This document shows positions 4,321-64,000 of a stretch of DNA of 64,000 nucleotides, piece after piece. Source of the DNA: Patescibacteria group bacterium. GTDB taxonomy: Bacteria > Patescibacteriota > Patescibacteriia > JAXHNJ01. The notes below the pieces were generated by a model. The model saw nothing but the letters and a program-made list of their open reading frames with translations. It did no database searches and was not told the DNA's origin. How positions within the stretch are numbered: the stretch's first letter is position 1; every line of letters starts with the position of its first letter. The stretch lies in NCBI GenBank assembly GCA_034520665.1, contig JAXHNJ010000002.1:608660-672659 (forward strand), read 5' to 3'. Both the position numbers and the translations under genes were made by a program.

Positions 4321-4395
4321 GGGGTGACCTACGGGAATCGAACCCGTATCACTGGTGCCACAGACCAGTGCACTAACCGTTGTGCTAAGGTCACC
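4321..4395 (-). tRNA. tRNA-His (anticodon GTG) with G-1
   Basis: Reverse complement folds as G-1 + GTGACCT acceptor / TA / GCAC-AACGGTTA-GTGC D-arm / CTGGT-CTGTGGC-ACCAG anticodon arm (GTG) / TGAT / ACGGG-TTCGATT-CCCGT T-arm / AGGTCAC + C73 pairing G-1. Confidence 0.8.
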
Positions 4396-5291: not shown

Positions 5292-5366
5292 TGGTGTCCC
5301 CAGTAGGAATCGAACCTACATCTAGGGCTTAGAAGGCCCTCGTTCTATCCATTGAACTATAGGGAC
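5292..5366 (-). tRNA. tRNA-Arg (anticodon TCT)
   Basis: RC = GTCCCTA TA GTTC AATGGATA GAAC G AGGGC CTTCTAA GCCCT AGATG TAGG TTCGATT CCTA CTGGGGAC A CCA; canonical cloverleaf, anticodon UCU. Confidence 0.85.
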
Positions 5367-40721: not shown

Positions 40722-40725
40722 TAAA

Positions 40726-45060: not shown

Positions 45061-45061
45061 A

Positions 45062-48000
45062 ATGCTATTTAACTTAAAAAACAAAAAAGTTAAATACACT
45101 CTAACCAGTCTCAGCCTTGTTTTTATACTGGTGTCTTTTGGTATTTTCTGGCCCCAGGCCGCTAACGCTGGAGCGGTTGAACTTTTTACCGAATTACTTG
45201 GTCATCTGCTTTATGAGGTGGCTGGGCTTTTAGGTAAAATTTTAGTGGCTGTTATCCAGATGTTGATTGCTATTGTGCAATATAATGATTTTGGCCAGGC
45301 CACAGCCGTGCAAAAAGGCTGGGTGATTATTCGCGATGTTTGTAATATGTTTTTTGTAGCCGTGCTTTTGATGATTGCTTTTGGCACCATATTTAAATGG
45401 GAAACCTACCGCTATAATAAGCTTTTGGGCCGATTTATTTTGATGGCTTTTTTGATTAATTTTTCCAAGTTTATTGCTTTATTTTTAATTGATGTTTCCC
45501 AGGTAATTATGATGACTTTTGTTAATGCTTTTTCCGATATTGCGGCTGGTAATTTAATCTCAGCTTTTGGACTGGAGGAAATGTTCAAATTTATGGAAAG
45601 CGGCGGGCAGGATTTAGAATTTTCCGGCGTAATCGGAGCTCTACTTCTAGCTATTATACTCTTAACCATAGCGGTAGTTACTGTTTTGGTACTTACTATG
45701 GTTTTACTCATGAGAATACTGGTTTTATGGCTGTTAATCGTTCTCTCTCCTCTGGCTTATTTTCTGCGTACTTGGCCGGGCTCGGGCGAGAAAGCCTCTT
45801 CTATGTGGTGGAAGGAATTTGGTAAAAATTTAATTAACGGTCCTTTAATTGCTTTTTTCTTATGGCTTTCTTTGAGTATTATTTCTACCTCTGGTGGCGA
45901 CAAATTAGCCCAAGAAGAACTTAACTATGGCGACCGTAAAATTACCACTGAACAGGCTATTGAATACGAAGAGGACACTGGTATGCAGGACCTTGGCGCA
46001 TCGGTGGGGGGTAAATTTTACACGACCATTAGTAATATTTCTTCTTCAGATCGGCTGCTTAGTTTTATTATTTCCATTTCTCTGCTTATGGGTTCTTTAT
46101 TGGTAGCCCAAAAAATGTCCTCGGCCGGCGGACAAGCGGCTGGCACGGTTTTGGGCAAGGTGAAAACCGGTCTGACTAAAGCCGCTAAACTGGGAGCGGC
46201 TGGAGTGACTTTTGGAGCTGGAAGAACAGGACTTGGTTTACTGGCTCGCACTAAACCGGTTAAAAGAGCAGCTAAGGGCGTAGGTAAGTGGGCTTTGGGA
46301 GAAACTATGGCTAGGACCGGTTTTGAATTGCGTCCCTCTGAATGGGGGAAGGGTATTGAAAGAGGTGGCGAAAGGAAGTTACAAGAACGCGAAGACAGAA
46401 TGAGGGCTAAGTCCCAAAAAAGAAGAGAAAAAGGTTATCATTTGGCAGCCTCTTTAAGTAATCCCGAACACGCTTTTTATGAATATTGGCGTTTGTCAAC
46501 ACCTGGAAAAATGTTAAGGCACCCCCTTCAATTTTTTGGCAAAGGTACAAAAAAAATGCACGACGCTTCTTTAGAGCAAAAAGCTAAATTAGATAAGATC
46601 AAAGAACGCGATAGTGAAGTATACGATGATGAAAAAGGAGAGTACAAGGATGTAACTAAAATTCAAGAAGAAAAGATGATCGAAAAAGAGAAAGAAAAAG
46701 TAATTAAAGAAAAAACTGAAGAAGTGGCACAAAAAAGAGAAGATTTAAAACCGGAAAAATCCTGGCCAGAACTAGAAAAAGAACTTAAAGCTGATGGCGC
46801 TACTGAAAATGACCTGGCTGAATTTAAGAAAGATTTTCAGACAGTTAATGAGGAATGGATGCGCTATGCTTCTGTCGGAGAGGTTATTAAAAATGAAAAA
46901 GGAAAAAAAATAGGTACGCAGAGGATAACTTTTGATGAAAAATGGGAGAAAATGAGAACGAGATTAGAAAAAAAGGGTTTAACTGATGAAGAAATTAAAG
47001 AAGAAGAAAAAAAGTTTAATAAAGAATGGAATAGAAACAAAGCAGAAAATATGTTAAATCCACATGAGCTGAATAAAGAAGCCAGAAAAAAATTTGAAGA
47101 CAAAAATTACAGTGATGGCGATTTAAGAAAGGCTTATTTTAATAATAAAGAAGAGGAAATAGAAAAACTAAAAAAAGAAAAAAATGAAATAAAAGATCCT
47201 GATTTTATAATGGAAGAAGACCAAAAGCAAAGAGAAAAAAAACTGCAAGCTATTAATGATGAGTTAAAAAAAATTGATAGGGATATTAAAGCAAAAGAAG
47301 AGGAAGGCAAGAAAAAGAATATAAAAATTGATCTTTCTAAAGAAAAGAATCTAAAAAAAGACCTAGAAAAAAGAAAAGAAGAAATAGAAAAGGCTCCTTT
47401 GAGTGATAAAGAGAAAGAAAGAAAAGAAAATAAAATAAATGAGATAAATGAGAAAATTGAAAATAAAGAATTCGAAAAAGATTTTACTGATATGACGGAA
47501 ATAGATAGACGGGAATTATTAAGGCAGCGCGAAGCCCAGAAAAAGGAATATGAAAAGGCTAGAAAAAAAGAAATTGATAGAATGCCGGCTATTGATTACT
47601 CGACCCGTAAAAATCAGCGTTTGGCTATTCAGAAAGAAAAAAATGAATTGACCACTGACAGTTGGCAGGAAATTGCCAGTTTTATTGAAGACGCTAAGAA
47701 AAAAAATAATTTAACTCGGGTGGCGGCCGGTTATCTTAAGGCGGCTGAATATGGCAATGAAAACGAAATACAAAATTATTATGGTTATGATAGTGATGCT
47801 AAAGGGTTAAAACAATTTGTCATGGGTGAATTAGTCGGTGAAAAAGGTTTGGGCAAGAATTTTAGAGAAGAAACAGAAAAAGCCGGTTTATCTTGGGAAA
47901 GTTACATTGATAAATTTGGTCATTATGTTGAGGGTATGAAGGGTAAAAAGGGGATGGGCATGTCTATGGAACAAGCCTTGAGTATAGCTAACGATGTTTC

Positions 48001-48508
48001 TTATACAGCTGAAAGAATGAATCACTGGGGGGCGGCCCGGGCTGTAGGCGTACAAGACGGCCGACAAGTTTGGCAAAAAGAAAAAGATCGTTTAACCGAA
48101 GTAATGGCTGAGGTGAGAAAACTTGATTTTGAAAATACTATGAGAAGATTTAACCGATTAGCTTTTGGCTCAGAAAGAATTAAAGATAAATGGGATTTCC
48201 GTGGTGGAGGCGGAAGAGATTTTATGATGAATGATTTTGCCTTGGCTTTTATGATGGAAAACTGGAAAAAGTTTCCCACACTTTTAGAGCGGGGACGTTT
48301 TGGGGTTAACTTGGCTATTAATTTAAGTAAAGAAAATAATATTGATCTTCTTCAAGAATTATCCACAGAAATACCGGCTGAAGAAAGAGATCGTTATTTA
48401 AAAGTTGTTGATGGTATACAAAATTTTGCGGCTACTGGTGGAGAAAGCGAATTTGATGATTTAGAAAGAATGCATCAAAGAAATTTGGGAGGATGGGAAA
48501 ATTATTAA
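45062..48508 (+). CDS. VirB6/TrbL-like polytopic membrane protein with a long (~800 aa) charged coiled-coil cytoplasmic extension
   Basis: Signal/TM then 6-7 TM helices in the first ~350 aa (…VAVLLMIAFGTIF…ILMAFLINFSKFIALFLIDVSQVIMMTFVNAFSDIAAG…) as in TrbL/VirB6; remainder K/E-rich heptad-like; 2 nt after the previous gene. Confidence 0.5.
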   Translation: MLFNLKNKKVKYTLTSLSLVFILVSFGIFWPQAANAGAVELFTELLGHLLYEVAGLLGKILVAVIQMLIAIVQYNDFGQATAVQKGWVIIRDVCNMFFVAVLLMIAFGTIFKWETYRYNKLLGRFILMAFLINFSKFIALFLIDVSQVIMMTFVNAFSDIAAGNLISAFGLEEMFKFMESGGQDLEFSGVIGALLLAIILLTIAVVTVLVLTMVLLMRILVLWLLIVLSPLAYFLRTWPGSGEKASSMWWKEFGKNLINGPLIAFFLWLSLSIISTSGGDKLAQEELNYGDRKITTEQAIEYEEDTGMQDLGASVGGKFYTTISNISSSDRLLSFIISISLLMGSLLVAQKMSSAGGQAAGTVLGKVKTGLTKAAKLGAAGVTFGAGRTGLGLLARTKPVKRAAKGVGKWALGETMARTGFELRPSEWGKGIERGGERKLQEREDRMRAKSQKRREKGYHLAASLSNPEHAFYEYWRLSTPGKMLRHPLQFFGKGTKKMHDASLEQKAKLDKIKERDSEVYDDEKGEYKDVTKIQEEKMIEKEKEKVIKEKTEEVAQKREDLKPEKSWPELEKELKADGATENDLAEFKKDFQTVNEEWMRYASVGEVIKNEKGKKIGTQRITFDEKWEKMRTRLEKKGLTDEEIKEEEKKFNKEWNRNKAENMLNPHELNKEARKKFEDKNYSDGDLRKAYFNNKEEEIEKLKKEKNEIKDPDFIMEEDQKQREKKLQAINDELKKIDRDIKAKEEEGKKKNIKIDLSKEKNLKKDLEKRKEEIEKAPLSDKEKERKENKINEINEKIENKEFEKDFTDMTEIDRRELLRQREAQKKEYEKARKKEIDRMPAIDYSTRKNQRLAIQKEKNELTTDSWQEIASFIEDAKKKNNLTRVAAGYLKAAEYGNENEIQNYYGYDSDAKGLKQFVMGELVGEKGLGKNFREETEKAGLSWESYIDKFGHYVEGMKGKKGMGMSMEQALSIANDVSYTAERMNHWGAARAVGVQDGRQVWQKEKDRLTEVMAEVRKLDFENTMRRFNRLAFGSERIKDKWDFRGGGGRDFMMNDFALAFMMENWKKFPTLLERGRFGVNLAINLSKENNIDLLQELSTEIPAEERDRYLKVVDGIQNFAATGGESEFDDLERMHQRNLGGWENY

Positions 48509-50038: not shown

Positions 50039-50347
50039 ATGCGTTTTACTCTAAATAAAAATAATATCCGTCTAAATACACCGACTTTACTCAAGAAGTG
50101 TGGTTATCATTATACGGGTATGTTTCGGGGTGAGCCTGGTTTTGCTCGGCGGGCCGGGAGAAGCCGCTATCCCCAGTTTCATATTTATGTTAATGAAGAG
50201 AGTCAGGATAAATTGGTTTTAAATTTACATCTGGACGCTAAAAAGGCCAGCTATGCTGGCAGCAAAATGCACGCCGGGGAGTATGATACCGAGGTTGTGA
50301 AACAGGAGATTCAAAGAATAGACGATATTATTAATAATCTTTCATGA
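50039..50347 (+). CDS. hypothetical protein
   Basis: 102-aa ORF. Confidence 0.35.
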   Translation: MRFTLNKNNIRLNTPTLLKKCGYHYTGMFRGEPGFARRAGRSRYPQFHIYVNEESQDKLVLNLHLDAKKASYAGSKMHAGEYDTEVVKQEIQRIDDIINNLS

Positions 50348-50680
50348 AAAAATATAATCTTAAGAACCAAGTTCATTTCATCACTATTAATACATATAAA
50401 AAATACTGGCTTTTTAAGAAAGAAAATCTTTGCCAAATAGTAATTGATAATCTAAATTTTTACCGCCGTAAATTTAGTTTTAAATTATTGGGTTACGTAA
50501 TTATGCCTAATCATCTACATTTATTAATTCAATTAAATAAAAAATATAATGATATTTCAAAGGTAATGAGGGATTTTAAGAAATTTACAAGTGTTCAAAT
50601 TATAAAGCAGTTAATAAAAGAAAATGAAAAAGATTTACTTAAAACATTTTCTATGACTGGTAAAATTTTTAATTATCCCT
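50344..50680 (+). mobile_element. IS200/IS605-family (HUH, Y1) transposase or RAYT-like remnant, truncated
   Basis: HFITINTYKKYW...LLGYVIMPNHLHLLIQ (HuH motif) ...ISKVMRDFKKFTS; the C-terminal catalytic-Tyr region is not recognisable; reading frame runs in-frame through REP-like palindromes into nnr. Confidence 0.6.
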
Positions 50681-50870
50681 CTACTCTGGGTACTGCCCGA
50701 TCCTCAGATCGGGCTAGTCTCTCGGCCGAATCTGAGGATTCGGCCTACCCGACTAGTTTTAGAAAGAAAAGAAAATATTCAGTCTGGATGAATGATTTTT
50801 ACGACTTTAACATCTATTCCGAGAATCTTCTACTCTGGGTACTGCCCGATCCTCAGATCGGGCTAGTCTC
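50681..50870. repeat. REP/BIME-like palindromic repeats (41-bp direct repeat at 50681-50721 and 50830-50870, plus inverted variant 50724-50747)
   Basis: ctactctgggtactgcccgatcctcagatcgggctagtctc occurs twice; core hairpin gcccgatc-ctca-gatcgggc; between them ggccgaatc-tgag-gattcggcc is the same palindrome type in inverted loop orientation. Confidence 0.75.
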
Positions 50871-50886
50871 TAAAAAATTTATCTAT

Positions 50887-51672
50887 ATGAAAAAAATAAA
50901 TAAATTAATTTTTAAAAAACTCTATCAACCACCCAAAAATTCCCACAAAGGCGACAACGGTGTTTTATTGATTTTAGCCGGTTCAAAAAAGTACCACGGG
51001 GCTCCTTGGTATGCTATTGAAGCGGCTTCAAAAATTGTTGATTTGATTTATTTTCATTCAGATCCAATGGCTATGCGCTTAATGGAAGAAATAAAAAAGA
51101 AAACTCCGTCTTTCATTGTAGTCAGTAAAAAAGAATTATCGAAAACAATTCAAAAATCAGATTGTCTTTTAATTGGTCCGGGTTGGGGTAAAAATGAAGC
51201 TAATAAAAAATTAATAAATAATTTATTAAAAAAGCATAAAAATAAAAAATTCGTTTTAGATGCTGATGCTCTGGCTTTAGTTAATTTAAAGCAGTTAAAT
51301 AAAAATATTCTGATTACTCCCCACAGCAGCGAGTTTAAAAAATTATTTAACATAAAAGCCAATCAGGAAAATCTCAAAAAAATGGCTAAAAAGTATCGGG
51401 TCAATATATTATTAAAAGGAAAAAAAGATATTATTTGCTCGCCCCAGGCATGTTTTTTCAATACTCGAGGTAATCAAGGTATGACCAAAGGCGGCACCGG
51501 TGATGTTCTGGCCGGTTTAATTAGCGCTTTGGCTTGTAAAAATGATTTATTAACCGCCACTAAAGCTGGCTGTTTAGTTAATGGCTTAGCCGGAGATAAA
51601 TTATATAAAAAATACAAAGTTTATTATAACGCTCGGGATTTGATTAAAGAAATACCTAAAATTTTAAAATAA
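50887..51672 (+). CDS. nnr: ADP-dependent NAD(P)H-hydrate dehydratase (YjeF C-terminal domain)
   Basis: HKGDNGVLLILAGSKKYHGAPWYA, LIGPGWG, VLDADAL, GGTGDVLAGLI motifs; probable own ATG at 50887 although the ORF track fuses it to the transposase remnant. Confidence 0.8.
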   Translation: MKKINKLIFKKLYQPPKNSHKGDNGVLLILAGSKKYHGAPWYAIEAASKIVDLIYFHSDPMAMRLMEEIKKKTPSFIVVSKKELSKTIQKSDCLLIGPGWGKNEANKKLINNLLKKHKNKKFVLDADALALVNLKQLNKNILITPHSSEFKKLFNIKANQENLKKMAKKYRVNILLKGKKDIICSPQACFFNTRGNQGMTKGGTGDVLAGLISALACKNDLLTATKAGCLVNGLAGDKLYKKYKVYYNARDLIKEIPKILK

Positions 51673-51872
51673 TGGAAATATACCGCAACTAAAGGGAATC
51701 AAGAAACATAGAAATTTTGATCATTGGATCATTTGAATTTGAAATTTGAAATTTGTTTTTAGTACTTGGGTCTAAAATACATCTAAAATCAAGACACTGA
51801 CCCCTCAAAAAAGCCTATTAAACTTTCTTTGTCTAAACAAACATTATATGGTATAATAAACAAGTAAAATAT

Positions 51873-52817
51873 ATGCCTAATTTTGTCTTACCTTTTTCAA
51901 AAATAAGCAAAAAAGACGTGAAAAAAGCCGGTGGTAAGGGCGCTTCTTTGGGTGAAATGACAGGCATAAAATTACCAGTACCACCTGGATTTGTAGTTTT
52001 AGCCAATGCTTTTGAAAAATATTTAAAAGATACGGATATTAATGTAGAAATTGAAGCAGCTTTGGATAAAGTAAGTGTTAAAGATGTTAACAGTGTGGAA
52101 AGAACTTCAAGCAAAATTAGAGATTTAATCCATGATTTTAAAGTTTCTTTAGACATAAAAAAACAAATTGAAAAAGCCTTTGATAATTTAAAAAGTAAAT
52201 TTGTAGCGGTCCGCAGTTCAGCTACAGCTGAAGATTCAAAAATAGCTTCTTGGGCTGGTGAATTGGAAACTTATCTCTTTGTTGATAAAAAGAATTTAAT
52301 GGATAAAGTAAGAACTTGCTGGTCTTCCTTATACACTCCTCGGGCTATTTTTTACCGCTTTGAAAAGGGGCTACATAAAAGAAAGGTGGGAGTAGCTGTA
52401 GTAGTTCAGGATATGATTGATTCAGAAGTTTCCGGGGTGGCTTTTACCGTTCATCCGGTTACCCGCGATAAAAACCAAATGGTGATTGAAGCGGTCTTAG
52501 GCCAGGGTGAAGCCATTGTCTCCGGTCAAGTGACTCCTGACACTTATGTTATTGATAAAGAAGATGATTATATTGTTGATATAAATATTTCTGAACAAAA
52601 AGAAAAAATAGCTTATAAAAAAAATGGCGGGACTAAGAAAGTAAAAATAGTAAATAAAGATATTGGAAAACAAAAATTAAGCGGCCAAGAAATAATAGGG
52701 CTGAGTAAAATCTGCAGCCAGATAGAAAAGCATTACCGCCATCCACAGGATATTGAATGGGCTCGGGCAAAAAATAAATTTTATATAACCCAATCAAGAC
52801 CAATAACTACCTTATAA
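51873..52817 (+). CDS. stand-alone PEP-utilising-enzyme N-terminal (PPDK_N/PEP synthase ATP-grasp-like) domain protein
   Basis: AGGKGASLGEMTGIKLPVPPGFVV ... VAVRSSATAEDS ... typical of PEP synthase/PPDK/rifampin-phosphotransferase N-domains; no phosphohistidine or PEP/pyruvate domains follow. Confidence 0.7.
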   Translation: MPNFVLPFSKISKKDVKKAGGKGASLGEMTGIKLPVPPGFVVLANAFEKYLKDTDINVEIEAALDKVSVKDVNSVERTSSKIRDLIHDFKVSLDIKKQIEKAFDNLKSKFVAVRSSATAEDSKIASWAGELETYLFVDKKNLMDKVRTCWSSLYTPRAIFYRFEKGLHKRKVGVAVVVQDMIDSEVSGVAFTVHPVTRDKNQMVIEAVLGQGEAIVSGQVTPDTYVIDKEDDYIVDINISEQKEKIAYKKNGGTKKVKIVNKDIGKQKLSGQEIIGLSKICSQIEKHYRHPQDIEWARAKNKFYITQSRPITTL

Positions 52818-52818
52818 T

Positions 52819-54597
52819 ATGACGGAGGGAAAATCCATACAACTGATAAGTGAAGAAGATTTATTTGAAGAAATTCAAACTAATCTCTTAGAATTAATTT
52901 CCGACAGTGATTTTGTTTTAGAGTTTAAGCTAAGGCTTATTTCCTGGCTTCCCTCAGACCGCCAGAAATTTATTAATCAAATAGTTGAAGCTCTTAAAAA
53001 TAATAATCAGTCAGTCGGTACTTTTATGGTTTCAGCCGAAGGCCATAAAATGCCCCCAACTGTTTCTAACTGGCTTAAAGACTTTGAACAAAGTGTTGGT
53101 GAGAATTTTAATCAAAAAAAGAAAGAGGAATATCTTAATTCCCCAGAATTTAAAAAGATAGAACTGGGACCGAGAACACTGCTGCAAAATCTTTTTGAAT
53201 TTTATGAATTAATAAAGTCTTTTCAAAAAGAACCGGAAAAAGTGGAAAAAATGATGGTGCGTGATAAAAAAGGCAATCTTCATGTTATGGATAGAGGAGA
53301 GTTATATGATTTAGAGAAAAAAACTTCATCTTTAGAAAAAGAAAAAGAATCTGACGTGGCTTTTACTTCTGATCCCGTTCCCGATAGATTTTCGGCGGAT
53401 AAAAAATCTACAGCCGATAAGTCTATTTCTTCTAAAGCTACGGTGGATCCGGAAGAAAAAAAGAAAATTAAGCCAGAGGAACCATATGAAAAGAAAAAGC
53501 AAGAATTTCCTAAAGAAAAAGCGACTAAAATTGAAGAAAAGCCTAAAAAAGAGGAAAGCCAACCAGAGGCCAAAAAACCAGAAAAACCGATTGCTTCTTC
53601 CTATATGTATCCTGAGGATGAAGAAGAAATCAGGGCTCAAAAAGATAATCTGTCCTCATATTCTCTGCCTAATATGGTTACATCTAATTCGGTTATTAAG
53701 GAAATAATTGAAAAGAATAATATTAATTTTTCGGATGATAATTTAGAAAAAAGATTTAAATCAATTTGCATTTCATATTTTAAAGGTATCCGCAATGAAA
53801 GAAGAACTAAAGATTTATTAATGCGCTCCACTAAAGTGGGAGGCCTGAATTATTCTGAAGATACAGCTCAAAATATTATTGAAATTCTGGAAAAAAATAA
53901 GGATAAAATTGATAAAATTCCACACGAGGAAGAAAAAAAAGAAGTAAAACAGAAAGTACCTACTCCCAGAGAAGCTTTAGAAAAAGCTATGGCTGATAAA
54001 GAAGTTATAAAGAGTAAAGAAGATATTAAAGCAGAAAAACCAGCCACTGAACAAAAAAGACCCGAACTCAAAAAAAGCAAAAATATTAAACCAAAATTTA
54101 AAGAAGAAAAAAGAAAAAAAACAAAAGAGGAAGAAAAAAAAGAGCCTATTTTACCAAAGACAGAATTATCACCAAAAACTGAAAAAAAGAAAGATATTAA
54201 AGTTGCCCGGCCAACCTCATCAGTCCGTGGAAAGAGGAAAATTGAAGATATAAAAGGTAAAACTAAATTACTGGGTCCTATTGATGAATTAAAGGAAATG
54301 AATCTTCGTGATTTTTCAAGATTGGGCTCTGATAAAAACAGTGCGGCTCAGAAAATTTATGAAAAATTAAATTTATTAAAGGAAGATTCTTTTTCAAAAT
54401 ATTCGAAAGGTGTTAAAGCGTGGCGGGAATCTGAAATTTATAATTTATATCTTGAAATGGGCCGTCAGAGTATGGAAAACCAAAAAACTATTCGGGAAAT
54501 AATTGAACAAAGAAAAAAAGAAAATCAGCCCTATTTAAGTGAACAACAATTTAACGAAATTGTTGATTTAAATAAAAAATTAAGCTTTAGTTTATGA
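52819..54597 (+). CDS. hypothetical K/E-rich protein
   Basis: 592 aa, highly charged low-complexity centre; 2 nt after the previous gene. Confidence 0.45.
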   Translation: MTEGKSIQLISEEDLFEEIQTNLLELISDSDFVLEFKLRLISWLPSDRQKFINQIVEALKNNNQSVGTFMVSAEGHKMPPTVSNWLKDFEQSVGENFNQKKKEEYLNSPEFKKIELGPRTLLQNLFEFYELIKSFQKEPEKVEKMMVRDKKGNLHVMDRGELYDLEKKTSSLEKEKESDVAFTSDPVPDRFSADKKSTADKSISSKATVDPEEKKKIKPEEPYEKKKQEFPKEKATKIEEKPKKEESQPEAKKPEKPIASSYMYPEDEEEIRAQKDNLSSYSLPNMVTSNSVIKEIIEKNNINFSDDNLEKRFKSICISYFKGIRNERRTKDLLMRSTKVGGLNYSEDTAQNIIEILEKNKDKIDKIPHEEEKKEVKQKVPTPREALEKAMADKEVIKSKEDIKAEKPATEQKRPELKKSKNIKPKFKEEKRKKTKEEEKKEPILPKTELSPKTEKKKDIKVARPTSSVRGKRKIEDIKGKTKLLGPIDELKEMNLRDFSRLGSDKNSAAQKIYEKLNLLKEDSFSKYSKGVKAWRESEIYNLYLEMGRQSMENQKTIREIIEQRKKENQPYLSEQQFNEIVDLNKKLSFSL

Positions 54598-55082
54598 GAC
54601 AATACACAGTGCCACAATTTATAGATATTGAAAGTAAAATTATCGGTTCTATTTCAGTGAGGCAATTTATTATTTTATTGGCTGGTGGTATTGTTATTTA
54701 TCTTAATTATGAATTGTTTGGTTCTATAAATTTCTGGTATTTTGGCATAACTTCTTTGTTTATATTTGCCTTTACAGGGACTTTAGCTTTTTTGAAAATA
54801 AATGGACAGTCTTTTCAATATTTTTTACTTAATATCTTTAATATTATTAAAGATCCGAGATTAAGAGTTTGGAATAAGGAATTTAGTAAGAAAGATTTTC
54901 AAGTTAAAAAATCTAAATCACCCGATACAAAAGTAATAGCTAAAAAAGAACCGCTTTCTTTATCGCATTTAAACCGTCTTTCTTTAGTGGTTGATACAGG
55001 CGGGGCTTATAAGGACGAAGACAAAATATTTAAAAAATCAACAGTTAAATATATTAAAAGAAAAAAAGATAATAATGAGTAA
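54594..55082 (+). CDS. VirB3/PrgI-like small two-TM protein
   Basis: 162 aa with two adjacent TM helices (FIILLAGGIVIYLNYELFG; YFGITSLFIFAFTGTLAFL), immediately upstream of VirB4-like genes. Confidence 0.4.
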   Translation: MRQYTVPQFIDIESKIIGSISVRQFIILLAGGIVIYLNYELFGSINFWYFGITSLFIFAFTGTLAFLKINGQSFQYFLLNIFNIIKDPRLRVWNKEFSKKDFQVKKSKSPDTKVIAKKEPLSLSHLNRLSLVVDTGGAYKDEDKIFKKSTVKYIKRKKDNNE

Positions 55083-55764
55083 AAAAAAGAAAGTAAAAAA
55101 AATAAAAAATAAGAAATCTGCTTCTACCCAGAAATATCTAGATATAATGGAAATTAAGGATAATTGTGTTATTCTTAAAGACGGCACTTTAAGAGCAGTT
55201 TTGATTGTTTCTTCTATTAATTTTTCCTTAAAATCAAATGAAGAGCAGGATGCGGTTATACAGAATTATGTACAATTCTTAAATTCTCTTAAATTTAATC
55301 TACAAATAGTAATACAGTCAAGAAAATTAAATATTGAAGGATATTTGAATAGGCTTCTAAAAATAGAAAAAGAACAAACAAATGAACTTTTAAAAATGCA
55401 AACCAAAGAATACAGACAATACATTACTGAATTAGTAGAAATGGCTGATATAATGAGTAAGAAATTCTATGTAGTTATTCCCTATACAGGACAAGGAGAA
55501 AAACCAAAAAAGTTTTGGAATAGATTAACTGAAGCCATTTCTCCCGGAAAAGTTATACATATAAAAAAGAAAAAGTTTAATAAATATAAGACACAGTTAT
55601 TTAAACAAGTGGATTTTGTCAGAGACAATCTCTCCTCAATCGGCTTAAGGGCCGAGCCACTAGATACCCAGAGTTTAATTGAATTGTATTATAATACTTA
55701 CAATCCGGAAACTTATGACCAACAAAAATTAACTGATGTAGAAAAAATAAATTTAGAGAAATAA
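55076..55764 (+). CDS. VirB4/TrbE-like N-terminal domain protein (split VirB4, part 1)
   Basis: DIMEIKDNCVILKDGTLRAVLIVSSINFSLKSNEEQDAVIQNYVQFLNSLKFNLQIVIQSRK matches the CagE/TrbE/VirB4 N-terminal pattern; ends TAA 3 nt before the next ATG. Confidence 0.5.
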
Positions 55765-55767
55765 ATT

Positions 55768-57777
55768 ATGGCTGATATAAATCTATCAAAATTTAAATCA
55801 GAAAAAGAAAAAGAGGTAGCTTCGGAAGAGAGTAAAAAGAAAAATTTGAAACCGGAAGAAGAAAAAGATCTGATTGAAGCCGAAAGAATTTATCAAAAAG
55901 GCGCTGTTTCAGTTAGAGACTTAATAGCTCCGGCGGCTGTTAATATTGAAAAAGATTATATAAATTTAGGTAGTCAATTTGTGCGTACAATATTTGTGGT
56001 TACTTATCCGCGCTATATTTCAGTGGGCTGGTTTGCTCCAGTAATAAACTTAAACTTGACCTTGGATGTTAGTATGTTCTTTTATCCGGTTGAATCAAAA
56101 GTAATTTTAAAACAACTTAAAAATAGAGTCGGTGTTTTAGAAGCTCAGATAATGTCAGATGCGGAAAAAGGAGCCCCCCGTGATCCGGTGAGAGAAACGG
56201 CTTTGAAAGACATTGAAAAATTAAGAGATGGTTTAACTCAAGGGGTAGAAAGATTTTTTCAATTTGCTCTTTATGTCAGTGTTTATGCTGATAGTAAAAA
56301 AGAACTGAATAATATAACAGAAAAAATAGAATCAATTTTTGGCTCGGTTTTGGTTTATACTAAGAGAGTGCTTTTTCAGGCTGAGCAAGGCTTCAATTCC
56401 ACAGTGCCTTTGGGTTTGGATGAACTGCAAATAGCTTTTAATATGAATTCCAGTCCTTGTGCTTCTTCTTTCCCTTTTGTTTCAGCCGATTTAACTTCAG
56501 AAAATGGTATTCTTTACGGCATTAATCGTCATAATAACAGTCTTATTCTTTATGATCGTTTCTCTCTGGAGAATGCTAACTTTAATGTTTTTGCTACCTC
56601 AGGTTCTGGTAAGAGTTATGCTATTAAACTGGAAGTTCTACGCTCACTTATGTTGGGCGCTGATGTTATTATTATTGATCCGGAAATGGAGTATAAATAT
56701 ATTTCAGATGCGGTTGGCGGTACTTATATTAATATTTCCTTAAATTCTGAAAGTAAGATTAACCCCTTTGATTTACCCAAATCAGTATACAGTGGTGAGA
56801 AACCGGCTGATATTATTCGTTCAGCCGTTATTACCTTAAAATCTCTTTTACGTTTAATGCTGGGAGATTTAACTCATGAAGAAGATTCCATTATTGATCG
56901 GGCTTTATTAGAAACTTATTCTACTCATGATATTACAGCTGATTCTGATTTAGAAAAAGTTAAACCTCCTTTAATGAAGGATTTACAAAATGTTCTTGAG
57001 GGTATGGTCGGAGCTGAAGAATTAGTCCAAAGAGTAAAAAAATATACTGAAGGAACATTTTCCGGTCTTTTTAACAGCCCGACAAATGTAGAAGTTGAAA
57101 ATCAATTGGTCATATTTTCGGTCCGTGATTTAGAGGATGAATTAAGACCGATTGGTATCTCTATGATTATTTCTTATGTTTGGAATGTGGTTCGTTCGCA
57201 AATGAAAAAACGTATTTTAGTTATTGATGAAGCTTGGTGGCTTATGCAAAATGAAGACTCCGCCAAATTTATTTACGCTTTAGTAAAACGCTGCCGCAAA
57301 TATTATCTTGGTGTGACTACTATTACCCAGGATGTTAATGACTTTTTACGCTCACCCTATGGGCAGGCTATTGTTAATAATTCGGCTCTTAAACTTTTGA
57401 TGAAACAATCTCCGTCTAGTATTGATATTGTGGCTAAAACTTTTCTTTTAACTCAAGGGGAAAGATACTTGCTTTTAGAGTCGGGCGTGGGAGAAGGTAT
57501 CTTTTTTGCCGGTACCCGGCACGCAGCTATAAAAATCGTCGCTTCCTATGCTGAGGATCAAATTATAACTTCTGACCCCAAGCAACTTTTAGAAATTGAA
57601 GAAGCCAAAAAAGAATTTAAAGATCAGATGGTAGAAGACGACGAAGAACAACAAGAAGAGGGGATAAAAGGAGAAGAGGCAGAAAGCCCGGTTAATAAAA
57701 TTGGCGAAAAACCTGAAGCTAAGGAGGAAAGTATCAGAGGTATAAATATTAGTAAAGACAGCCAAGGTTTAGGTTAA
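55768..57777 (+). CDS. VirB4/TrbE-like conjugal-transfer ATPase, C-terminal ATPase domain (split VirB4, part 2)
   Basis: Walker A FATSGSGKSY, IIIDPEMEY, Walker B RILVIDEAWWLM, C-terminal TTITQDVNDF...ALKLLMKQSP...GEGIFFAG motifs. Confidence 0.85.
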   Translation: MADINLSKFKSEKEKEVASEESKKKNLKPEEEKDLIEAERIYQKGAVSVRDLIAPAAVNIEKDYINLGSQFVRTIFVVTYPRYISVGWFAPVINLNLTLDVSMFFYPVESKVILKQLKNRVGVLEAQIMSDAEKGAPRDPVRETALKDIEKLRDGLTQGVERFFQFALYVSVYADSKKELNNITEKIESIFGSVLVYTKRVLFQAEQGFNSTVPLGLDELQIAFNMNSSPCASSFPFVSADLTSENGILYGINRHNNSLILYDRFSLENANFNVFATSGSGKSYAIKLEVLRSLMLGADVIIIDPEMEYKYISDAVGGTYINISLNSESKINPFDLPKSVYSGEKPADIIRSAVITLKSLLRLMLGDLTHEEDSIIDRALLETYSTHDITADSDLEKVKPPLMKDLQNVLEGMVGAEELVQRVKKYTEGTFSGLFNSPTNVEVENQLVIFSVRDLEDELRPIGISMIISYVWNVVRSQMKKRILVIDEAWWLMQNEDSAKFIYALVKRCRKYYLGVTTITQDVNDFLRSPYGQAIVNNSALKLLMKQSPSSIDIVAKTFLLTQGERYLLLESGVGEGIFFAGTRHAAIKIVASYAEDQIITSDPKQLLEIEEAKKEFKDQMVEDDEEQQEEGIKGEEAESPVNKIGEKPEAKEESIRGINISKDSQGLG

Positions 57778-57792
57778 TTAAAATATAAATAT

Positions 57793-58404
57793 ATGAAAAA
57801 ATTATCTATTATCATTATGGTAGCCGTTATAATTATTTTAGGAGGTCTGGCCTTTGTATTTTTTTATTGGTATGAGGGTAATGGCAATGTGAATGACGAC
57901 AATCTTAATCAAGCAAATACTAATTTTGCTTTAAATTTAAATCAGAATCAAAATCTAAATCTTTCGGTTAATACAAATGCGAATAATAATACTAATTCGG
58001 CTATTGATAAAAGTAAAGAAAAAAATGAAATAATAGGAATGGCCCATACTTTTGCTGAACGTTTCGGCAGTTATTCAAACAAAAATGATTTTGAAAATTT
58101 AGAAAACCTTAAATCATGGATGACTTCTAGCTACCAAAAAGATATAGATAGCTATATTGAAGAACAAGAGAAAATTAGATCTGAAGACGATGATTATAAA
58201 GCTATGGTGAGTAAAGTAATTTCTAATAAAATAACTAATTTTTCCGACGAAAGCGCTAGAGTAGAGTTATTAACTGAAAGAACTGAAGAAGATCTAACAG
58301 ATACTCTGGATAATTATTATCAGAAATTAGTTTTAGAGTTAAAAAAAATTGATAATACATGGAAAATTAATGCTGCTTCCTGGGGTGAAAAGAGTGATCT
58401 ATAA
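57793..58404 (+). CDS. bitopic membrane protein (possible VirB8-like)
   Basis: N-terminal TM, N/Q-rich linker, ~130-aa C-terminal domain; position after VirB4; no motif confirmed. Confidence 0.3.
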   Translation: MKKLSIIIMVAVIIILGGLAFVFFYWYEGNGNVNDDNLNQANTNFALNLNQNQNLNLSVNTNANNNTNSAIDKSKEKNEIIGMAHTFAERFGSYSNKNDFENLENLKSWMTSSYQKDIDSYIEEQEKIRSEDDDYKAMVSKVISNKITNFSDESARVELLTERTEEDLTDTLDNYYQKLVLELKKIDNTWKINAASWGEKSDL

Positions 58405-58414
58405 AATATAAGTT

Positions 58415-58708
58415 ATGAAAGAATTAGATGAAAAAAAAAAGAGTGAAAATAAAGATAGGGAAATTGAAAGAGAGTTAAAAGAAAAACGTTTTAATGAAAG
58501 AAACATTAATCAAGAAAATTTACGTGAAATTCCTGAAACCCAAGCGGATGATGGGGAAACTCCAGAAGAATATAGAAATTCATCCTCTGAAAAAGATGGA
58601 TTAGATTTTAATCAGGAAGATACAAAAAAGGAGGAAGAAGAAGATGAGGAAAGACAAAGAAGAAGAAAATTAGAAAAGAGTAAGAAAAATAGCCAAAGAG
58701 GAGGTTAG
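58415..58708 (+). CDS. hypothetical highly charged small protein
   Basis: 97 aa, E/K/R-rich. Confidence 0.3.
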   Translation: MKELDEKKKSENKDREIERELKEKRFNERNINQENLREIPETQADDGETPEEYRNSSSEKDGLDFNQEDTKKEEEEDEERQRRRKLEKSKKNSQRGG

Positions 58709-59029
58709 AGAAAAAGTCAAAAAGTAGTTAAAAAAGCAGCTAAAAGTTTTTAAAAATACTCATTCAAAAGAATAATGATACCAAATTCTGGGGCTATCGT
58801 CAGTTTTTTTCTGGCTACCTGGTATATTTGGCTTGATTTTGGCAGTAATTATTTTTCTGATTATTTTAGGACATTACATTTATGAAAATCCTAGCGAGAT
58901 TACAAATTTTTTGGATAAAGAAACTTTTGAGGGCTTAAAGGCAATTTTTAAGTCCTGATTATTAAATTATAATATGATAAATAAAAATATAAAAATATTA
59001 ACTAAATTAACTTTAGCTTTTAACAGTAT

Positions 59030-60300
59030 TATTTTTTTACTCTTTCCTTTTATAATACTTTAGCTCAAGAAGGAGGCGTCAGCGAACGAAATCCGGAGAA
59101 AAAGGAAATACCAGTAAGATTTGAAAATACCAAAAATCGACTAAAACCCTGTGATGAAAACGGGAAAATTTGCTGGTAGTTACTGTGCTCAATAACTTTG
59201 GCGAATTGCTGTGTCAGTTTTTCTGACGGGTTTGCTGGAGCAGTGTGTTTGCCGCTGTCATGATTGTCTTTGCTGGTTTGAAATCGATTACTGCAGCGGC
59301 AATGTCCACCAAAATAGAAAAAGCCAAAGCCACTTTAAACGGCGCTTTAATAGGTCTGGTTTTAACCTTAGGGGCTTTTGTTTTACTTGATCTAGCCCGG
59401 CCTTGGTCCGCTTTAAACTTTTGCCCTTGATCTAATATATCAAAAAATGTTTTAGATACTTTTTATTGCAGGGTCTACAAATCGAGATAGATAGATCACA
59501 CCACATTTTGCTTGCTGGTACAAGTTATGGTATTCCTAAAAGTGTCCAGGATGAAGTGGGTTATAATAAATATTATTGTTGTGGTAGTGTCTGTAGTGAC
59601 TGTTTGATGAGGAGGGTAACCCACGAATTTGCGCTAATGATGTAACTATGGTGGGTGAAGATTGTCCTTCTTTATTGTTCTGACCCACAAAAATCATGTG
59701 AGGAAGCTAATAAAGATGAGCGTCAGAAAATTGAACTCGACATATTGGAAAAAAATAAAATAACTGATTATAAATGTAGTAAGGATAGACCGGTATTTCC
59801 TCCGACTCCTGTGCTTATGTTGAAAATAGTAGAAAATCCTTGTGAAGGAAATTGGAAAAGAATAAATTGTAGTTTTAAAGGTAGAATATTCTGGAGAAGT
59901 AGAAACAGCTTGTTGGGATAGAGTGGAAGGATTATTGTACAACGATGAAAGAGTATAGATATCGATAATGGTGTTGCGTTTTATTGAAAGAAAATACATT
60001 TTTTGCCAAGAAGAGTTATGTATGGAGATGTTTGAAGAAAAGATATTATACAGATAGATTGCTATAATAGTTGTATAATACAATGGAGAAAGTTATACAG
60101 TATGTCAGGGACGACTATGGAAAATTGTAGTTCAATATTACGCACTAATTTATTGTGGAAAAAATTTAAAGATAAAAAGTAAATATTATTAATAGGAACC
60201 TAAGTTAAAAAGAAATTCACCACTTTATGTGGAGAAAATCCTTGTGGATCAAGTACATCTGCCAGTGCGCCAATGGATATTTGGCTGTATGGATGTTAAC
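59030..60300 (+). pseudogene. degraded copy (a) of the pilin-like/Cys-rich gene family (d-type paralog)
   Basis: Multiple frameshifts; fragments LAQEGG..., FGELL..., MFAAVMIVFAGLKSITAAAMSTKIEKAKATLNGALIGLVLTLGAFVLL (ORF 59245..59430), CEEANKDE...ILEKNKITDYKCSKDRP...IVENPCEGNWKRINCSFKG (ORF 59655..59921) and LCGENPCGSSTSASA align to the minus-strand copy at 62840-64000. Confidence 0.6.
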
Positions 60301-60339
60301 TTATATGTTAAAAAAATACAATTTTTCCTAATTTAAATA

Positions 60340-61470
60340 CAAGATGAAAAATAGCTAAATAATTTTTACCCATCAATTTTCCGTTTTGTTATTTATTCAG
60401 ATTTTTAGTCAGGAAGAAGGAGCTGATACAGAAGTGGTTAAAAGGATATTAGAGTCTACAAATTCCTGGTTAACCAAAAAAATGTATCCCATACTTCGAC
60501 CCGCTGATTATTGTGTCAATAACTTTGGCCATCACACTATAGAATTTCACCAGCTCGCAGCGGCGCACCCCCTTTGCCGGCACTGCCAGTGCACGCCACT
60601 CGAAAAGTGAGAAAAAGCCAAACTTGATTTTAAACGGCGCTTTAATGGGTTCGCTTTAGGGCTTTCGTTTTACTTACACTTACCCCAGCCTCTGGTCCAA
60701 CTTTTGCCCTTGTCTAATATATCAAAAAATGTTTTAGATAATTTCATTGCAAAAATAATTCCCGCATAACTCAATATAGTTACCCATATTTTGCTTGTGG
60801 GCAAGATACTATATTCCTAAAAGTGTCAATATAAAAAAGCAGTTATGGTAATTCATATTGTCGTAGTGAATGCGATTCCGACTGTAAGAAAATAACTTTG
60901 GGGAGAACGGCAAAAAATTGAAAAGGATTGTCCTTTTAAAATTGTTGAATCTTATATTTATGCGATGAAGCTGATGATGAAAAAATGCGAAGGATGCTGT
61001 TATCGGCTAAAAAATCAGGAAATAAAATCAAGCTGCCGTAGTAATTACAAGGGTTTTGGAAATAATGGACTGCCGAATTTTCAAAAACACGTGGTACGAG
61101 GATAACCTAATATTTGAAGTTACCTTTTACAAGATTGATGGAAAAGTTGTGAAAGAAGTTACTGATATAAGAATAGATTGTGAGTGGTGGTACCAAATGC
61201 TTGACTCTGATAATAATAAATCACAAGATAATTTATAATTCTGACAAAATTTTTGTACTATTTTTGTATAGCTCAATACTATTTGTCGTATGAAAAAAAA
61301 AAAAAACAGTAAATTGATTGTTGATCTGGAATGGTTATAGTAAAAAATGAATTTGAGACGCGCGACACCTATATAATCTGAATTTACCACACGAAATACC
61401 AGGTGGCGGCGAGGATTGTTGATTGATATGAATGTCTTTGCTTCAGTCATCATATCAACTATCTTCATTA
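60340..61470 (+). pseudogene. degraded copy (b) of the pilin-like/Cys-rich gene family (c-type paralog)
   Basis: Broken signal peptide; SQEEGADTEVVKRI...ADYCVNNFGHH... (ORF 60386..60610); degenerate IEKAKATLNGAL segment; ...CDEADDEK...; EVTDIRIDCE (ORF 61056..61238); in-frame stops and frameshifts throughout. Confidence 0.6.
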
Positions 61471-61655
61471 AAATTCTTTATATCGTCAAATTATTAGCTG
61501 TATTTAGATATAAAAAAATATTTCTCGAATAATTTGACGATATAATCAAGTAAAATTTTAATGAAGATAAGGTCCGAGCACAACAAATATGATCAGCTGG
61601 ACAAAAACATTCATTATTATCAATACAAGCAAGATCCTCGCCGCCACCTTGGTAT
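61393..61655. repeat. 24-bp inverted repeat gaaataccaggtggcggcgaggat (61393-61416) / atcctcgccgccaccttggtatttc (61631-61655) at the convergent 3' ends of paralogs b and c
   Basis: Near-perfect inverted match (one extra a in the right copy) visible directly; part of a longer stretch of inverted homology between the 3' ends of the plus- and minus-strand copies. Confidence 0.8.
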
Positions 61656-62743
61656 TTCATATCATTAAATTCCGGGCTATTATAGGTGTCACAGTCTACC
61701 TCAATTTCATTTTTACTATCACATTTCCCAGGATCCCGACAATCAATTTCTGTTTTTAAGGCTTTCATACAACAAATAGTGTCAGCTTCTACGTTAGCCC
61801 GGGAATCACTGCTACAAAAAATTTTGCTAGGAGCTATGAGATATCTTGGTTCATTATTATCAGAGTCCCAACATTGGGTACCGCCACGTTCACAATCTAT
61901 TCTTATATCAGTAACTTCTTCACAGACTTTTTCAGTCAACTCATCTTGTAAAAGATTAACTTCAAATATTCCATTACTACTAGTACCACGTATTTTTGCA
62001 AAACGGCAGTCCATATTCCCAAAACCCTTATTAATTCTACGGCAGCTTGATTTTATTTCTGGATTTTTAGCAATAACAGCATCCACTTCTTGGCATTTTT
62101 CATCATCAGCTTCATCGCATAAATCCTTGGGGTCAAAACAATTTAAAGGACAATCCTTTTTAGAAGTAACGTCATTGGCGCAAATTTTTGGTTCTCCGGA
62201 TTTAGTTTCTACAGTCGGATCACATTCACTACCACAACAATATGATTCACCATAAGCTGCTTTATCCTGGGCACTTTTAGGAATATCATATCTTGTACCA
62301 CAAGCAAAATATGGGTAACTATCTATTGATTCTTTATCCGGGAAATCTTTGCAATAAAAAGTATCTAAAACATTTTTTGATATATTAGACAAGGGCAAAA
62401 GTTTAAAGCGGACCAAGGCTGGGTTAATAGTATTAAGTAAAACAAAAGCCCCTAAGGTTAAAACCAGACCCATTAAAGCGCCGTTTAAAGTGGCTTTGGC
62501 TTTTTCTATTTTGGTGGCATTGCCGCTGGCAGTAATCCACTGGAAACCAGCAAAGACAATCATGACAGCGGCAAAGATACCGGCCGCTCGAGCAAACCAT
62601 TGGTAAAACTGTATAATATAATCGCCAAAGTTATTGACACAATAATCACAGGTAGAGGTATTACAATCGGGATCACATTTTTTGGTTAAGCCGGGAATTT
62701 GTAAATTTACTTTAATCTGTTTTTCACCCAACTTCTGTATCAC
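61478..62743 (-). CDS. VirB2/TrbC-pilin-like protein fused to a ~300-aa Cys-rich C-terminal domain (paralog c)
   Basis: ...DYCVNNFGDYIIQFYQW then two hydrophobic helices separated by TASGNATKIEKAKATLNG (TrbC/VirB2 topology), then about 40 Cys in CxC/CC clusters; start is GTG; the signal peptide lies upstream in another frame. Confidence 0.65.
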   Translation of the reverse strand: MIQKLGEKQIKVNLQIPGLTKKCDPDCNTSTCDYCVNNFGDYIIQFYQWFARAAGIFAAVMIVFAGFQWITASGNATKIEKAKATLNGALMGLVLTLGAFVLLNTINPALVRFKLLPLSNISKNVLDTFYCKDFPDKESIDSYPYFACGTRYDIPKSAQDKAAYGESYCCGSECDPTVETKSGEPKICANDVTSKKDCPLNCFDPKDLCDEADDEKCQEVDAVIAKNPEIKSSCRRINKGFGNMDCRFAKIRGTSSNGIFEVNLLQDELTEKVCEEVTDIRIDCERGGTQCWDSDNNEPRYLIAPSKIFCSSDSRANVEADTICCMKALKTEIDCRDPGKCDSKNEIEVDCDTYNSPEFNDMKYQGGGEDLACIDNNECFCPADHICCARTLSSLKFYLIISSNYSRNIFLYLNTANNLTI

Positions 62744-62835
62744 TTCCTTCTTCCTGAGCTAAAACTTGCCCTGAATAAAATAACAAAACGGAAAAAATTG
62801 ATAGGATTAAGATTATTTTAGCTATTTTTTTCATC
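62726..62835 (-). CDS. signal-peptide exon of paralog c (MKKIAKIILILSIFSVLLFYSGQVLAQEEGSDTEVG*), separated from the main ORF by a -1/+1 frameshift
   Basis: ATG at 62833-62835 (minus), typical signal peptide, stop after 36 codons overlapping the GTG start of 61478..62743; homolog 60386.. reads through (SQEEGADTEVVKRI). Confidence 0.55.
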
Positions 62836-62839
62836 TTAT

Positions 62840-64000
62840 TATTTAATTAGGAAAAATATTATTTTCATTTTTAACATATAAGTTAACATCCATACAGCAA
62901 TGTCCATTAGGCACAATACTGCAATCAGTAGCACTGGCAGATGCACTTGATCCACAAGGATTTTCTCCACATAAAGCCGATAATGAGTAAAATTCTTTTT
63001 AATTTTGGGTTCATATTAATAATATTTACTTATATTTTAATTTTTCCACAATAAATTAGTGCGCATCCAACAATTTGAACTACAATTTTCAGTAGTGTTG
63101 TCGTAATAGGTACCTGACATACTATTATAACTTTCTCCATTGTCTAAAATATCACTATCACAATCTATCTGTATAATATCTTTTTCTTCCCAAACATCTC
63201 CCATACTCGAGTAAGGTTTTTCTTCTTGGCAAAATATATTTTCTTTAGGAAATAGAGCGCAACACCATTTATCAATATCTCCTACTCTTTCATCATTTGT
63301 ACAATAATCCCTTGGCTCATCTTTATCCCAACAAGCTGTTTCTACTTCTCCAGAATATTCTCCTTTAAAACTACAATTTATTCTTTTCCAATTTCCTTCA
63401 CAAGGATTTTCTACTATTTCAACATAAGCACAGGAGTCAAAGGAAAGACCGGGTCTATCCTTACTACATTTATAATCAGTTATTTTATTTTTTTCCAATA
63501 TGTCGTCAATTTTATAACACTCATCTTTATTAGCTTCCTCACATAATTTTTGTGGGTCAAAACAATTTAAAGGACAATCTTCACCCACCATAGTTACATC
63601 ATTAGCACAAATTTGTGGGTTACCCTCCTCATCAACATCACTACAGACACTACCACAACAATAAGATTCACCATAACCCACTTCATCCTGGACACTTTTA
63701 GGAATATCATAACTTGTACCACAAGCAAAATGTGGTATTATCTATCGATCTCGATCCGGAAACCCTGCAATAAAAGTATCTAAAACATTTTTTTATATAT
63801 TAGACAAGGCAAAAGTTTAAAGCGGACCAAGGCCGGGTTAATAGTATTAAGTAAAACAAAAGCCCCTAAGGTTAAAACCAGACCGATTAAAGCGCCGTTT
63901 AAAGTGGCTTTGGCTTTTTCTATTTTGGTGGCATTGCCGCTGGCAGTAATCCACTGGAAACCAGCAAAGACAATCATGACAGCGGCAAAGATACCGGCCG
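62840..64000 (-). pseudogene. paralog d of the pilin-like/Cys-rich family, frameshifted, running off the window
   Basis: ORFs 63037..63681 (Cys-rich domain) and 63780..63977 (MIVFAGFQWITASGNATKIEKAKATLNGALIGLVLTLGAFVLLNTINPALVRFKLLP) are separated by indels relative to paralog c; C-terminal ALCGENPCGSSASASATDCS... in a third frame at 62880-63000. Confidence 0.6.

Follow-up and report, generated by a model that had tools for sequence, protein, structure and literature searches.

The subject of this analysis is a split gene for a type IV secretion system (T4SS) pilin-like protein with a cysteine-rich extension, located near the right-hand end of a 64,000-nt stretch of DNA from a Patescibacteria group bacterium (GenBank assembly GCA_034520665.1, contig JAXHNJ010000002.1, positions 608,660 to 672,659 of the forward strand). 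The whole stretch is referred to as the window. Four pilin-like copies, a to d, lie in that order beyond a VirB4-like ATPase gene, and the third of them, copy c, is read as two overlapping open reading frames (ORFs) on the minus strand. The shorter (62724-62834) consists of 36 codons encoding a signal peptide, MKKIAKIILILSIFSVLLFYSGQVLAQEEGSDTEVG, and ends in a TGA stop at 62724-62726. The longer (61478-62743) starts at a GTG, encodes 421 residues and was deposited as MDZ7799060.1 under the name 'pilin'. The two frames are offset by one nucleotide, in agreement with an earlier interpretation made from the letters of the window alone (the sequence-only reading), which had described a signal peptide one frame away from a GTG-initiated mature ORF. 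The frame change itself, which had been placed at about 62740-62760, was located at 62724-62730, where the minus strand reads GTT GGG TGA A (T-GGG-TGA). One base is in excess at this site, the simplest account being that GG was read as GGG. The only homopolymers at the junction (62719-62729) are runs of three G and five A (G3 and A5).

An intact version of the gene is present in the same metagenome-assembled genome (MAG). MDZ7799060.1 is carried on a 698,002-bp contig of this Patescibacteria MAG, and its 90%-identity cluster also contains P0011, a 424-residue protein (MDZ7797993.1 and MDZ7798000.1) encoded on a contig of 455,760 bp whose locus tags likewise begin with U5L76. In P0011 the signal peptide is in frame (...QEEGSDTEVGEKQIKVNLQ...), and its N-terminus, MKKIAKIILILSIFSVLLFYSGQVLAQEEGSDTEVGEKQIKVNLQIPGL..., is the signal peptide of the window joined in frame to the mature part of the window. 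The signal-peptide ORF of copy c matches residues 1-36 of P0011 with no differences, removal of one base at GGGT restores ...SDTEVGEKQIKVNLQ... and with it the P0011 sequence, and 384 consecutive residues (GEKQIK...HICCA) are identical between the 421-residue ORF and P0011. Differences are confined to the junction and the C-terminal tail. At the tail, P0011 ends in ...ICCAQTYLH and the 421-residue ORF continues as ...ICCARTLSSLKFY...NNLTI; a second cluster of differences, a substitution and a one-base insertion in CGGACCT, was found here (61558-61576, minus strand), with the errors themselves at 61570-61576 and the predicted true stop, TAA, at 61558-61560. Because of this second indel, the last 30 or so residues of the longer ORF (RTLSSLKFY...NNLTI; 61478-61557) are predicted to be spurious read-through.

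Comparison with homologues gave the same picture. Five distant homologues drawn from JGI, ENA and Logan (P0002-P0006; 30-50% identical to P0011) are all single ORFs, and the three-part arrangement of signal peptide, core and cysteine-rich region is encoded in one frame both in these and in the genes of three related loci (L002, L003 and L009); the architecture also recurs in homologues at 31-64% identity. The ortholog comparison proposed in the sequence-only reading, in which a shared split would have indicated a pseudogene, therefore showed orthologs that are not split. A protein search with the repaired 79-residue N-terminus for short-read fragments crossing the junction found nothing, and an exact DNA pattern upstream of the copy c junction had no match in JGI metagenomes. 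Looking up the 421-residue ORF and P0011 as exact proteins in an index of contigs also gave no match.

Copy d, a paralogue of copy c, occupies 63037-64000 on the minus strand and runs off the end of the window. Its intact form, P0015 (408 residues), is encoded on the 455,760-bp contig. These two paralogues, pilin a (408 residues; copies a and d) and pilin b (424 residues; copies b and c), share 59% identity, most of the differences lying in the ectodomain. Copy d is likewise broken, being divided into MDZ7799061 (214 residues) and MDZ7799062 (158 residues) by errors at about 63700-63806 that include a CCC read as CC and an in-frame stop. The deposited MDZ7799060-62 are thus truncated or split versions of MDZ7797993 and MDZ7797994. 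Within this region, at about 63700-63800, both arms of the inverted repeat described below share a divergent stretch (CAGGG...ATCGAGAT.GATAGAT) that mismatches the P0015 protein; either a read error is shared here or P0015 was over-polished with reads from pilin b.

The segment 59248-61417 aligns, imperfectly, to the reverse complement of 61634-63989, so that copies a and b form the left arm and copies c and d the right arm of a mirror image. The central loop is 32 nt long (61496-61527), is flanked by the innermost arms at 61467-61495 and 61528-61556, and lies about 45 nt beyond the predicted true stop of pilin b. The mirror is also visible in the protein accessions of the 698,002-bp contig, which occur in pairs numbered MDZ77990 55/64 (203 residues), 54/65 (VirB4), 51/68 (592), 50/69 (314), 49/70 (442), 47/72 (478), 46/73 (1148), 45/74 (1444) and 44/75 (1953). 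RsmA and the genes before it have a single accession each, and the arms were therefore estimated at about 27 kb. The right arm extends well past the window, and as the last mirrored locus tag seen was U5L76_05775, it probably forms the end of the contig. A second mirror was found at the start of the 455,760-bp contig, where proteins of 424, 408, 104 and 195 residues are followed by proteins of 195, 182, 408 and 424 residues; unlike the first, it is centred near the start of the 195-residue gene. In five related loci (L002-L005 and L009) no mirror and no reversed VirB4 copy was found. As deposited, the MAG contains about 15 proteins twice, several of them split (34860-64000 and beyond, and the start of the 455,760-bp contig).

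The differences between the arms are concentrated in the inner 2.8 kb of the left arm (58674-61495, plus strand), which holds a 182-residue gene and copies a and b and reads, apart from these differences, as the right arm in reverse complement. Here 153 indel events separate the arms, 91 involving a single base, together with 93 transitions and 84 transversions (ratio 1.1). An independent reference was provided by a short-read Logan contig from the same organism (L001; SRR26473340, 8,382 bp), which covers the outer left arm. No differences from the window were seen over 7,832 bases (50842-58673), after which, from 58674, 24 indels and 9 substitutions appear abruptly in the next 530 nt, half of these indels in runs of at least three bases. 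In this contig, unlike in the window, neither the 182-residue gene nor the beginning of pilin a is disrupted there. Outside the inner 2.8 kb, in the outer 24 kb or so, both arms encode identical proteins, including VirB4 and those of 592 and 478 residues, which makes the gradual decay of an old duplicate incompatible with the data. An indel-rich profile with a transition to transversion ratio near 1 looks like raw long-read error, unlike pseudogene evolution. Copies a and b, described as degraded in the sequence-only reading, are on this evidence unpolished assembly noise and not pseudogenes. That reading had also pointed out that copy b reads straight through the junction; such an ORF exists (60386-60610), and the noisy left-arm copy has GG-T at the frameshift position, but the read-through is uninformative as evidence because copy b belongs to the indel-riddled mirror of the c/d region.

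Taken together, the frame offset and the apparently degraded copies are very probably artefacts of assembly, and a false inverted duplication of about 27 kb appears to lie at one contig end of the U5L76 MAG. The gene order is mirrored around a short loop, an arrangement absent from relatives and from independent assemblies, and the profile of differences between the copies is that of sequencing error, being rich in indels, with a transition to transversion ratio of about 1 and an abrupt onset. Copy c would then be the gene of a 424-residue secreted membrane protein that was broken by a single-base insertion error at 62724-62730, with the small second error cluster breaking it again at the 3' end. 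In the proposed sequence of events, the contig would run through VirB4, the 203-residue and 182-residue genes, pilin a and pilin b, fold back 45 nt past the pilin b stop and retrace about 27 kb, the same locus having been assembled again at the start of the second contig. The assembly presumably broke at the pilin locus, and chimeric fold-back reads may then have lengthened both contig ends. With the pilin region present in up to four competing copies, polishing would have been incomplete: the innermost 2.8 kb on the left side would have kept raw-read quality, and a few indels would have stayed in copies c and d; the errors in copy c would have persisted because the gene sits in the fold-back mis-assembly. 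Long-read metagenome assemblies have been described as containing false duplications, genes broken by indels and stretches that lose their reads to a duplicate elsewhere (bioRxiv 10.1101/2025.04.22.649783). The present case shares with these a duplicate placed at a contig end, disagreement of one copy with independent data, ORFs broken by indels and the apparent recruitment of reads to another copy. It differs in being an inverted fold-back, whereas the published cases are mainly direct repeats in PacBio HiFi data.

Several points weigh against this interpretation. The extra base at 62724-62730 is called an error by inference, and long-read noise was deduced from the error pattern and the contig sizes. 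The interpretation does not account for the left rather than the right inner arm having stayed unpolished. The frameshift is located outside the repeat core that pilins a and b have in common, and beyond the window the mirror was traced through pairs of protein accessions. Three causes had been offered for the frame offset in the sequence-only reading, namely a frameshift mutation, a sequencing indel, and programmed frameshifting or slippage acting as a phase switch. The sequencing indel fits and the other two do not, because the same MAG has an in-frame twin, the homologues are in frame, only G3 and A5 runs are present and the mirror is poorly polished.

Among the alternatives, a genuine frameshift survives best, although it is improbable. 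Pilin b would in that case be a recently inactivated pseudogene in the population or strain, or would be translated from the GTG without a signal peptide. The extra base is indeed in the deposited sequence, a GTG-start protein of 421 residues was annotated by NCBI, and the pilin arrays of Patescibacteria are variable, so that loss of one paralogue is conceivable. However, the same MAG has an identical in-frame copy with identical neighbours (the 195-residue and 182-residue genes and pilin a). The absence of any amino-acid difference over 384 residues means that a mutation would have to be extremely recent, and three error sites fall within 2.5 kb of the right arm, adjoining 2.8 kb of noise.

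A real inverted duplication, in which the decayed arm would consist of silent donor cassettes of the pilE/pilS type or the centre would be a hairpin telomere read through by the assembly, is very unlikely. It would account for the four pilin-like segments arranged symmetrically (a b, then c d) around a short-loop centre and for the occurrence of a mirrored arrangement twice in the MAG. The divergence of the arms is, however, dominated by indels, has a transition to transversion ratio of about 1 and is confined to 2.8 kb, the outer 24 kb or so encoding identical proteins; the short-read contig has the left-arm locus unbroken, and the relatives have no mirror. Furthermore, the two mirrors are centred on different points of one 4-kb stretch and therefore cannot both exist in one chromosome. 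Silent pilE/pilS cassettes were rejected since the left arm mirrors whole genes and intergenic DNA and differs mainly by random small indels. A hairpin telomere was rejected since the second contig continues past pilin b and the fold-back centre differs.

The weakest alternative, a programmed +1 frameshift at GGG-UGA-A or a slipped-strand phase switch of pilin expression, is likewise very unlikely: a 0-frame UGA does follow GGG directly and a +1 slip onto GGU would keep the glycine and yield exactly the P0011 sequence, but the junction is kept in no homologue (P0011, P0002-P0006 and the genes of L002, L003 and L009 all being single ORFs), the upstream sequence ...GTGATACAGAAGTT-GGG-TGA has no Shine-Dalgarno-like stimulator at 3 nt and no element of the GGAGG type within 10 nt, contingency tracts are far longer than the G3 and A5 runs found here, and the break in copy d falls at another, unrelated place, which favours random errors over a designed site. 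The programmed +1 site of prfB (RF2), CUU-UGA-C, is similar in that a sense codon precedes UGA and a +1 slip restores the ORF; copy c differs from it in lacking conservation and an upstream Shine-Dalgarno-like stimulator, and in that an in-frame version of the gene occurs at another place in the MAG. Recoding of UGA as glycine at the junction was also considered and rejected, as the 0 frame meets a TAA four codons later.

With the frame offset attributed to assembly error, the protein itself remains of mild interest. The full-length form of 424 residues consists of a Sec signal peptide, a short segment with four cysteines, a helix-loop-helix core and a C-terminal domain of about 275 residues. 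The VirB2-like core (62429-62617, minus strand; residues 43-105 of the 421-residue ORF) matches PF18895 (T4SS_pilin) with 26.6 bits, exactly the gathering score (E 6.2e-6). The same family (PF18895.6) is precomputed for P0001-P0006, and relatives in L002 and L003 score 35.5-36 bits. In copy c, helix 1 is at about 62531-62599 and helix 2 at about 62420-62485 (minus strand), separated by the lysine-rich loop TASGNATKIEKAKATLNG. Hydropathy analysis of P0011 placed hydrophobic segments at residues 1-27, 79-104 and 114-141, with the basic loop between the two helices. An AlphaFold2 model built from an 11-sequence alignment was of low confidence (mean predicted local distance difference test score 62.5) and had helices at residues 39-71 and 78-106, numbered from the GTG. 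The TrbC/VirB2 family PF04956 had no match to the 421-residue ORF at E<=1. The best NCBIfam match to the core (residues 67-136) was NF045849, at 26.1 bits for P0011 and 27.1 bits for P0015, under its 40-bit cut-off.

The C-terminal region (61577-62392, minus strand) is a cysteine-rich, acidic putative ectodomain with 26 cysteines and a net charge of about -23. Including the four cysteines before helix 1, the full-length protein has 30, where about 40 had been estimated beforehand. The cysteine number is even and between 20 and 30 in all full-length members checked (P0011, P0015 and P0002-P0006). No Pfam match to the domain was found, a profile search against PDB sequences returned nothing, and a Foldseek comparison of the predicted model with the PDB gave nothing below E=1; the search for remote homologues suggested in the sequence-only reading thus yielded none in Pfam, PDB sequences or PDB folds. 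A single-sequence search with the domain alone against 1.84 billion representatives gave only 8 matches, all of the same architecture and therefore providing no link to any known family, which marks the domain as a rare orphan. The combination of a VirB2/TrbC-like core with a large cysteine-rich domain, first proposed from sequence, was upheld by the PF18895 match, hydropathy and its repetition in homologues. The domain architecture is real, and is a modest variation on a known family.

The pilins are located beside a T4SS core on the plus strand (52819-58404) that comprises a 592-residue membrane protein, a PrgI/VirB3-like protein (54594-55082), a TrsD-like protein (54991-55764), a CD1110-family VirB4-like ATPase (55768-57777), which scores 365.9 bits for NF045971, where the cut-off is 325, and a conserved 203-residue protein. 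On its gene content, this cluster is classed as a monoderm-type (MPF-FATA-like) T4SS as known in Patescibacteria. A scan of GTDB representatives, which do not include the source MAG, returned relatives only. In L002-L005 and L009 the shared order is a phosphoenolpyruvate (PEP)/pyruvate-binding protein, the 592-residue protein, PrgI, TrsD-like, VirB4, a protein of about 200 residues, an acidic transmembrane protein and the cysteine-rich pilin; in L002, L003 and L009, which were read further, a protein of about 416 residues and then a DsbA-like protein follow. In these relatives a single strand carries the T4SS genes, the pilin and the genes that directly follow it. A stand-alone PEP/pyruvate-binding protein of 314 residues (PPDK_N) is encoded at 51873-52817 on the plus strand of the window, and in L003 and L004 such a gene is directly upstream of the T4SS membrane gene; a protein of this kind is unexpected next to a secretion cluster.

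Two genes downstream of the cysteine-rich pilin, the relatives encode a DsbA/thioredoxin-like protein with a CPYC or CPFC motif (L002:12542-13177, L003:12552-13178 and L009:7098-7718). The equivalent part of the source genome is masked by the fold-back. L002 (13184-14398) and L003 (13179-14393) encode a second PF18895 protein, represented also by P0008 and P0009, with an M15/VanY D-Ala-D-Ala peptidase domain after the core; in the L002 and L003 proteins a cysteine-rich segment is also present N-terminal to the core. This protein might supply the peptidoglycan-remodelling role of VirB1, which is missing from most Patescibacteria T4SS clusters. On a tentative reading, the joining of M15/VanY to the same core in relatives would suggest that the pilin core serves generally as a module for delivering extracellular domains.

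Other features of the window were recorded alongside. A 442-residue protein (50344-51672, plus strand) combines an N-terminal IS200-like Y1 transposase (PF01797, E 2e-9) with a NAD(P)H-hydrate dehydratase domain, and its 90% cluster also contains a 132-residue 'transposase' from the 455,760-bp contig. Three consecutive genes at 34860-48508 on the plus strand, just upstream of the T4SS cluster, encode giant proteins of 1953, 1444 and 1148 residues that have only weak fn3, purple-acid-phosphatase-N and carbohydrate-binding module matches and may be surface proteins. An FG-GAP/CarboxypepD_reg protein of 1333 residues is encoded at 11832-15833. At about 4-6.9 kb the genes change orientation and the GC skew switches as well, beside tRNA-His (4321-4394) and tRNA-Arg (5292-5366), and RsmA/KsgA is located at 33083-33916, near virB4. 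The skew switch and the proximity of RsmA to virB4 fit the reported near-origin placement of Patescibacteria T4SS clusters; no dnaA was found among the window genes scanned. Rfam and tRNA scans detected the two tRNAs only, far from the pilin locus.

Known systems offer partial parallels to the pilin. VirB2-like pilins of PF18895, often in arrays of 2-11, have been reported near virB4 in more than 1000 assemblies, in a survey that describes Patescibacteria T4SS clusters as essential for epibiotic growth and as having no recognisable adhesin, with no PrgB-type adhesin detected (PMC12102498). Extensions of the pilin such as the cysteine-rich ectodomain go unmentioned in the passages of that survey that were searched. 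The proteins described here share with other PF18895 pilins of Patescibacteria a signal peptide that precedes two helices flanking a basic loop, a place in an MPF-FATA-like cluster close downstream of VirB4, PrgI and TrsD, and tandem divergent paralogues. They differ in being of 408-442 residues, and not of the small VirB2 size, with an acidic ectodomain of about 275 residues and 20-26 cysteines. The TrbC/VirB2 pilins of diderm T4SS (Agrobacterium VirB2 and RP4 TrbC; PF04956) are similar in predicted topology, helix-loop-helix structure and association with VirB4. Classical members of this group are trimmed or cyclised to about 70 residues; the present proteins have a large C-terminal domain and a monoderm-type context without VirB7/9/10. 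The pilin-like conjugal transfer protein Mbov_0395 of the Mycoplasma integrative conjugative element (NF045849) likewise belongs to wall-less/monoderm systems with a VirB4_plasma-type ATPase, but its family is only about 80 residues long and was matched at 26-27 bits, below the 40-bit cut-off.

In VirB2, the loop is cytoplasmic and both ends point outward. If, by analogy, pilin b is inserted in the same way, its loop would be in the cytoplasm and both ends outside, and the cysteine-rich domain would therefore be extracellular. Disulfide bonding of this domain fits the even cysteine counts and the DsbA-like gene of the relatives, and oxidation of the ectodomain could be served by that gene, two genes downstream. 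Pilin b would thus display a disulfide-stabilised ectodomain on the cell surface, within or beside a monoderm-type T4SS, and is most plausibly a surface contact or adhesion component anchored by a pilin-type hairpin. Against this stands the fact that the role assigned to the ectodomain is inferred only, the AlphaFold model being poor and fold and sequence matches being absent. A bolder form of the idea can be entertained tentatively, although it is doubtful: while the frameshift is artefactual, the family might supply the surface adhesin, or the element for recognising hosts, that is missing from the Patescibacteria T4SS. The VirB2-type hairpin would then anchor a fast-evolving, disulfide-knotted ectodomain or feed it into the pilus, and if this were true, the divergent paralogues a and b, through variation in the ectodomain, would widen the host range. 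No biological interpretation is warranted for the split signal peptide, the 'degraded' copies or the symmetric layout of four copies, because these are products of fold-back mis-assembly, very probably, in the deposited MAG. For the biology of the organism, a VirB2-like protein that has a large acidic ectodomain rich in disulfides and is conserved beside VirB4 is a reasonable candidate for a role in cell-cell contact.

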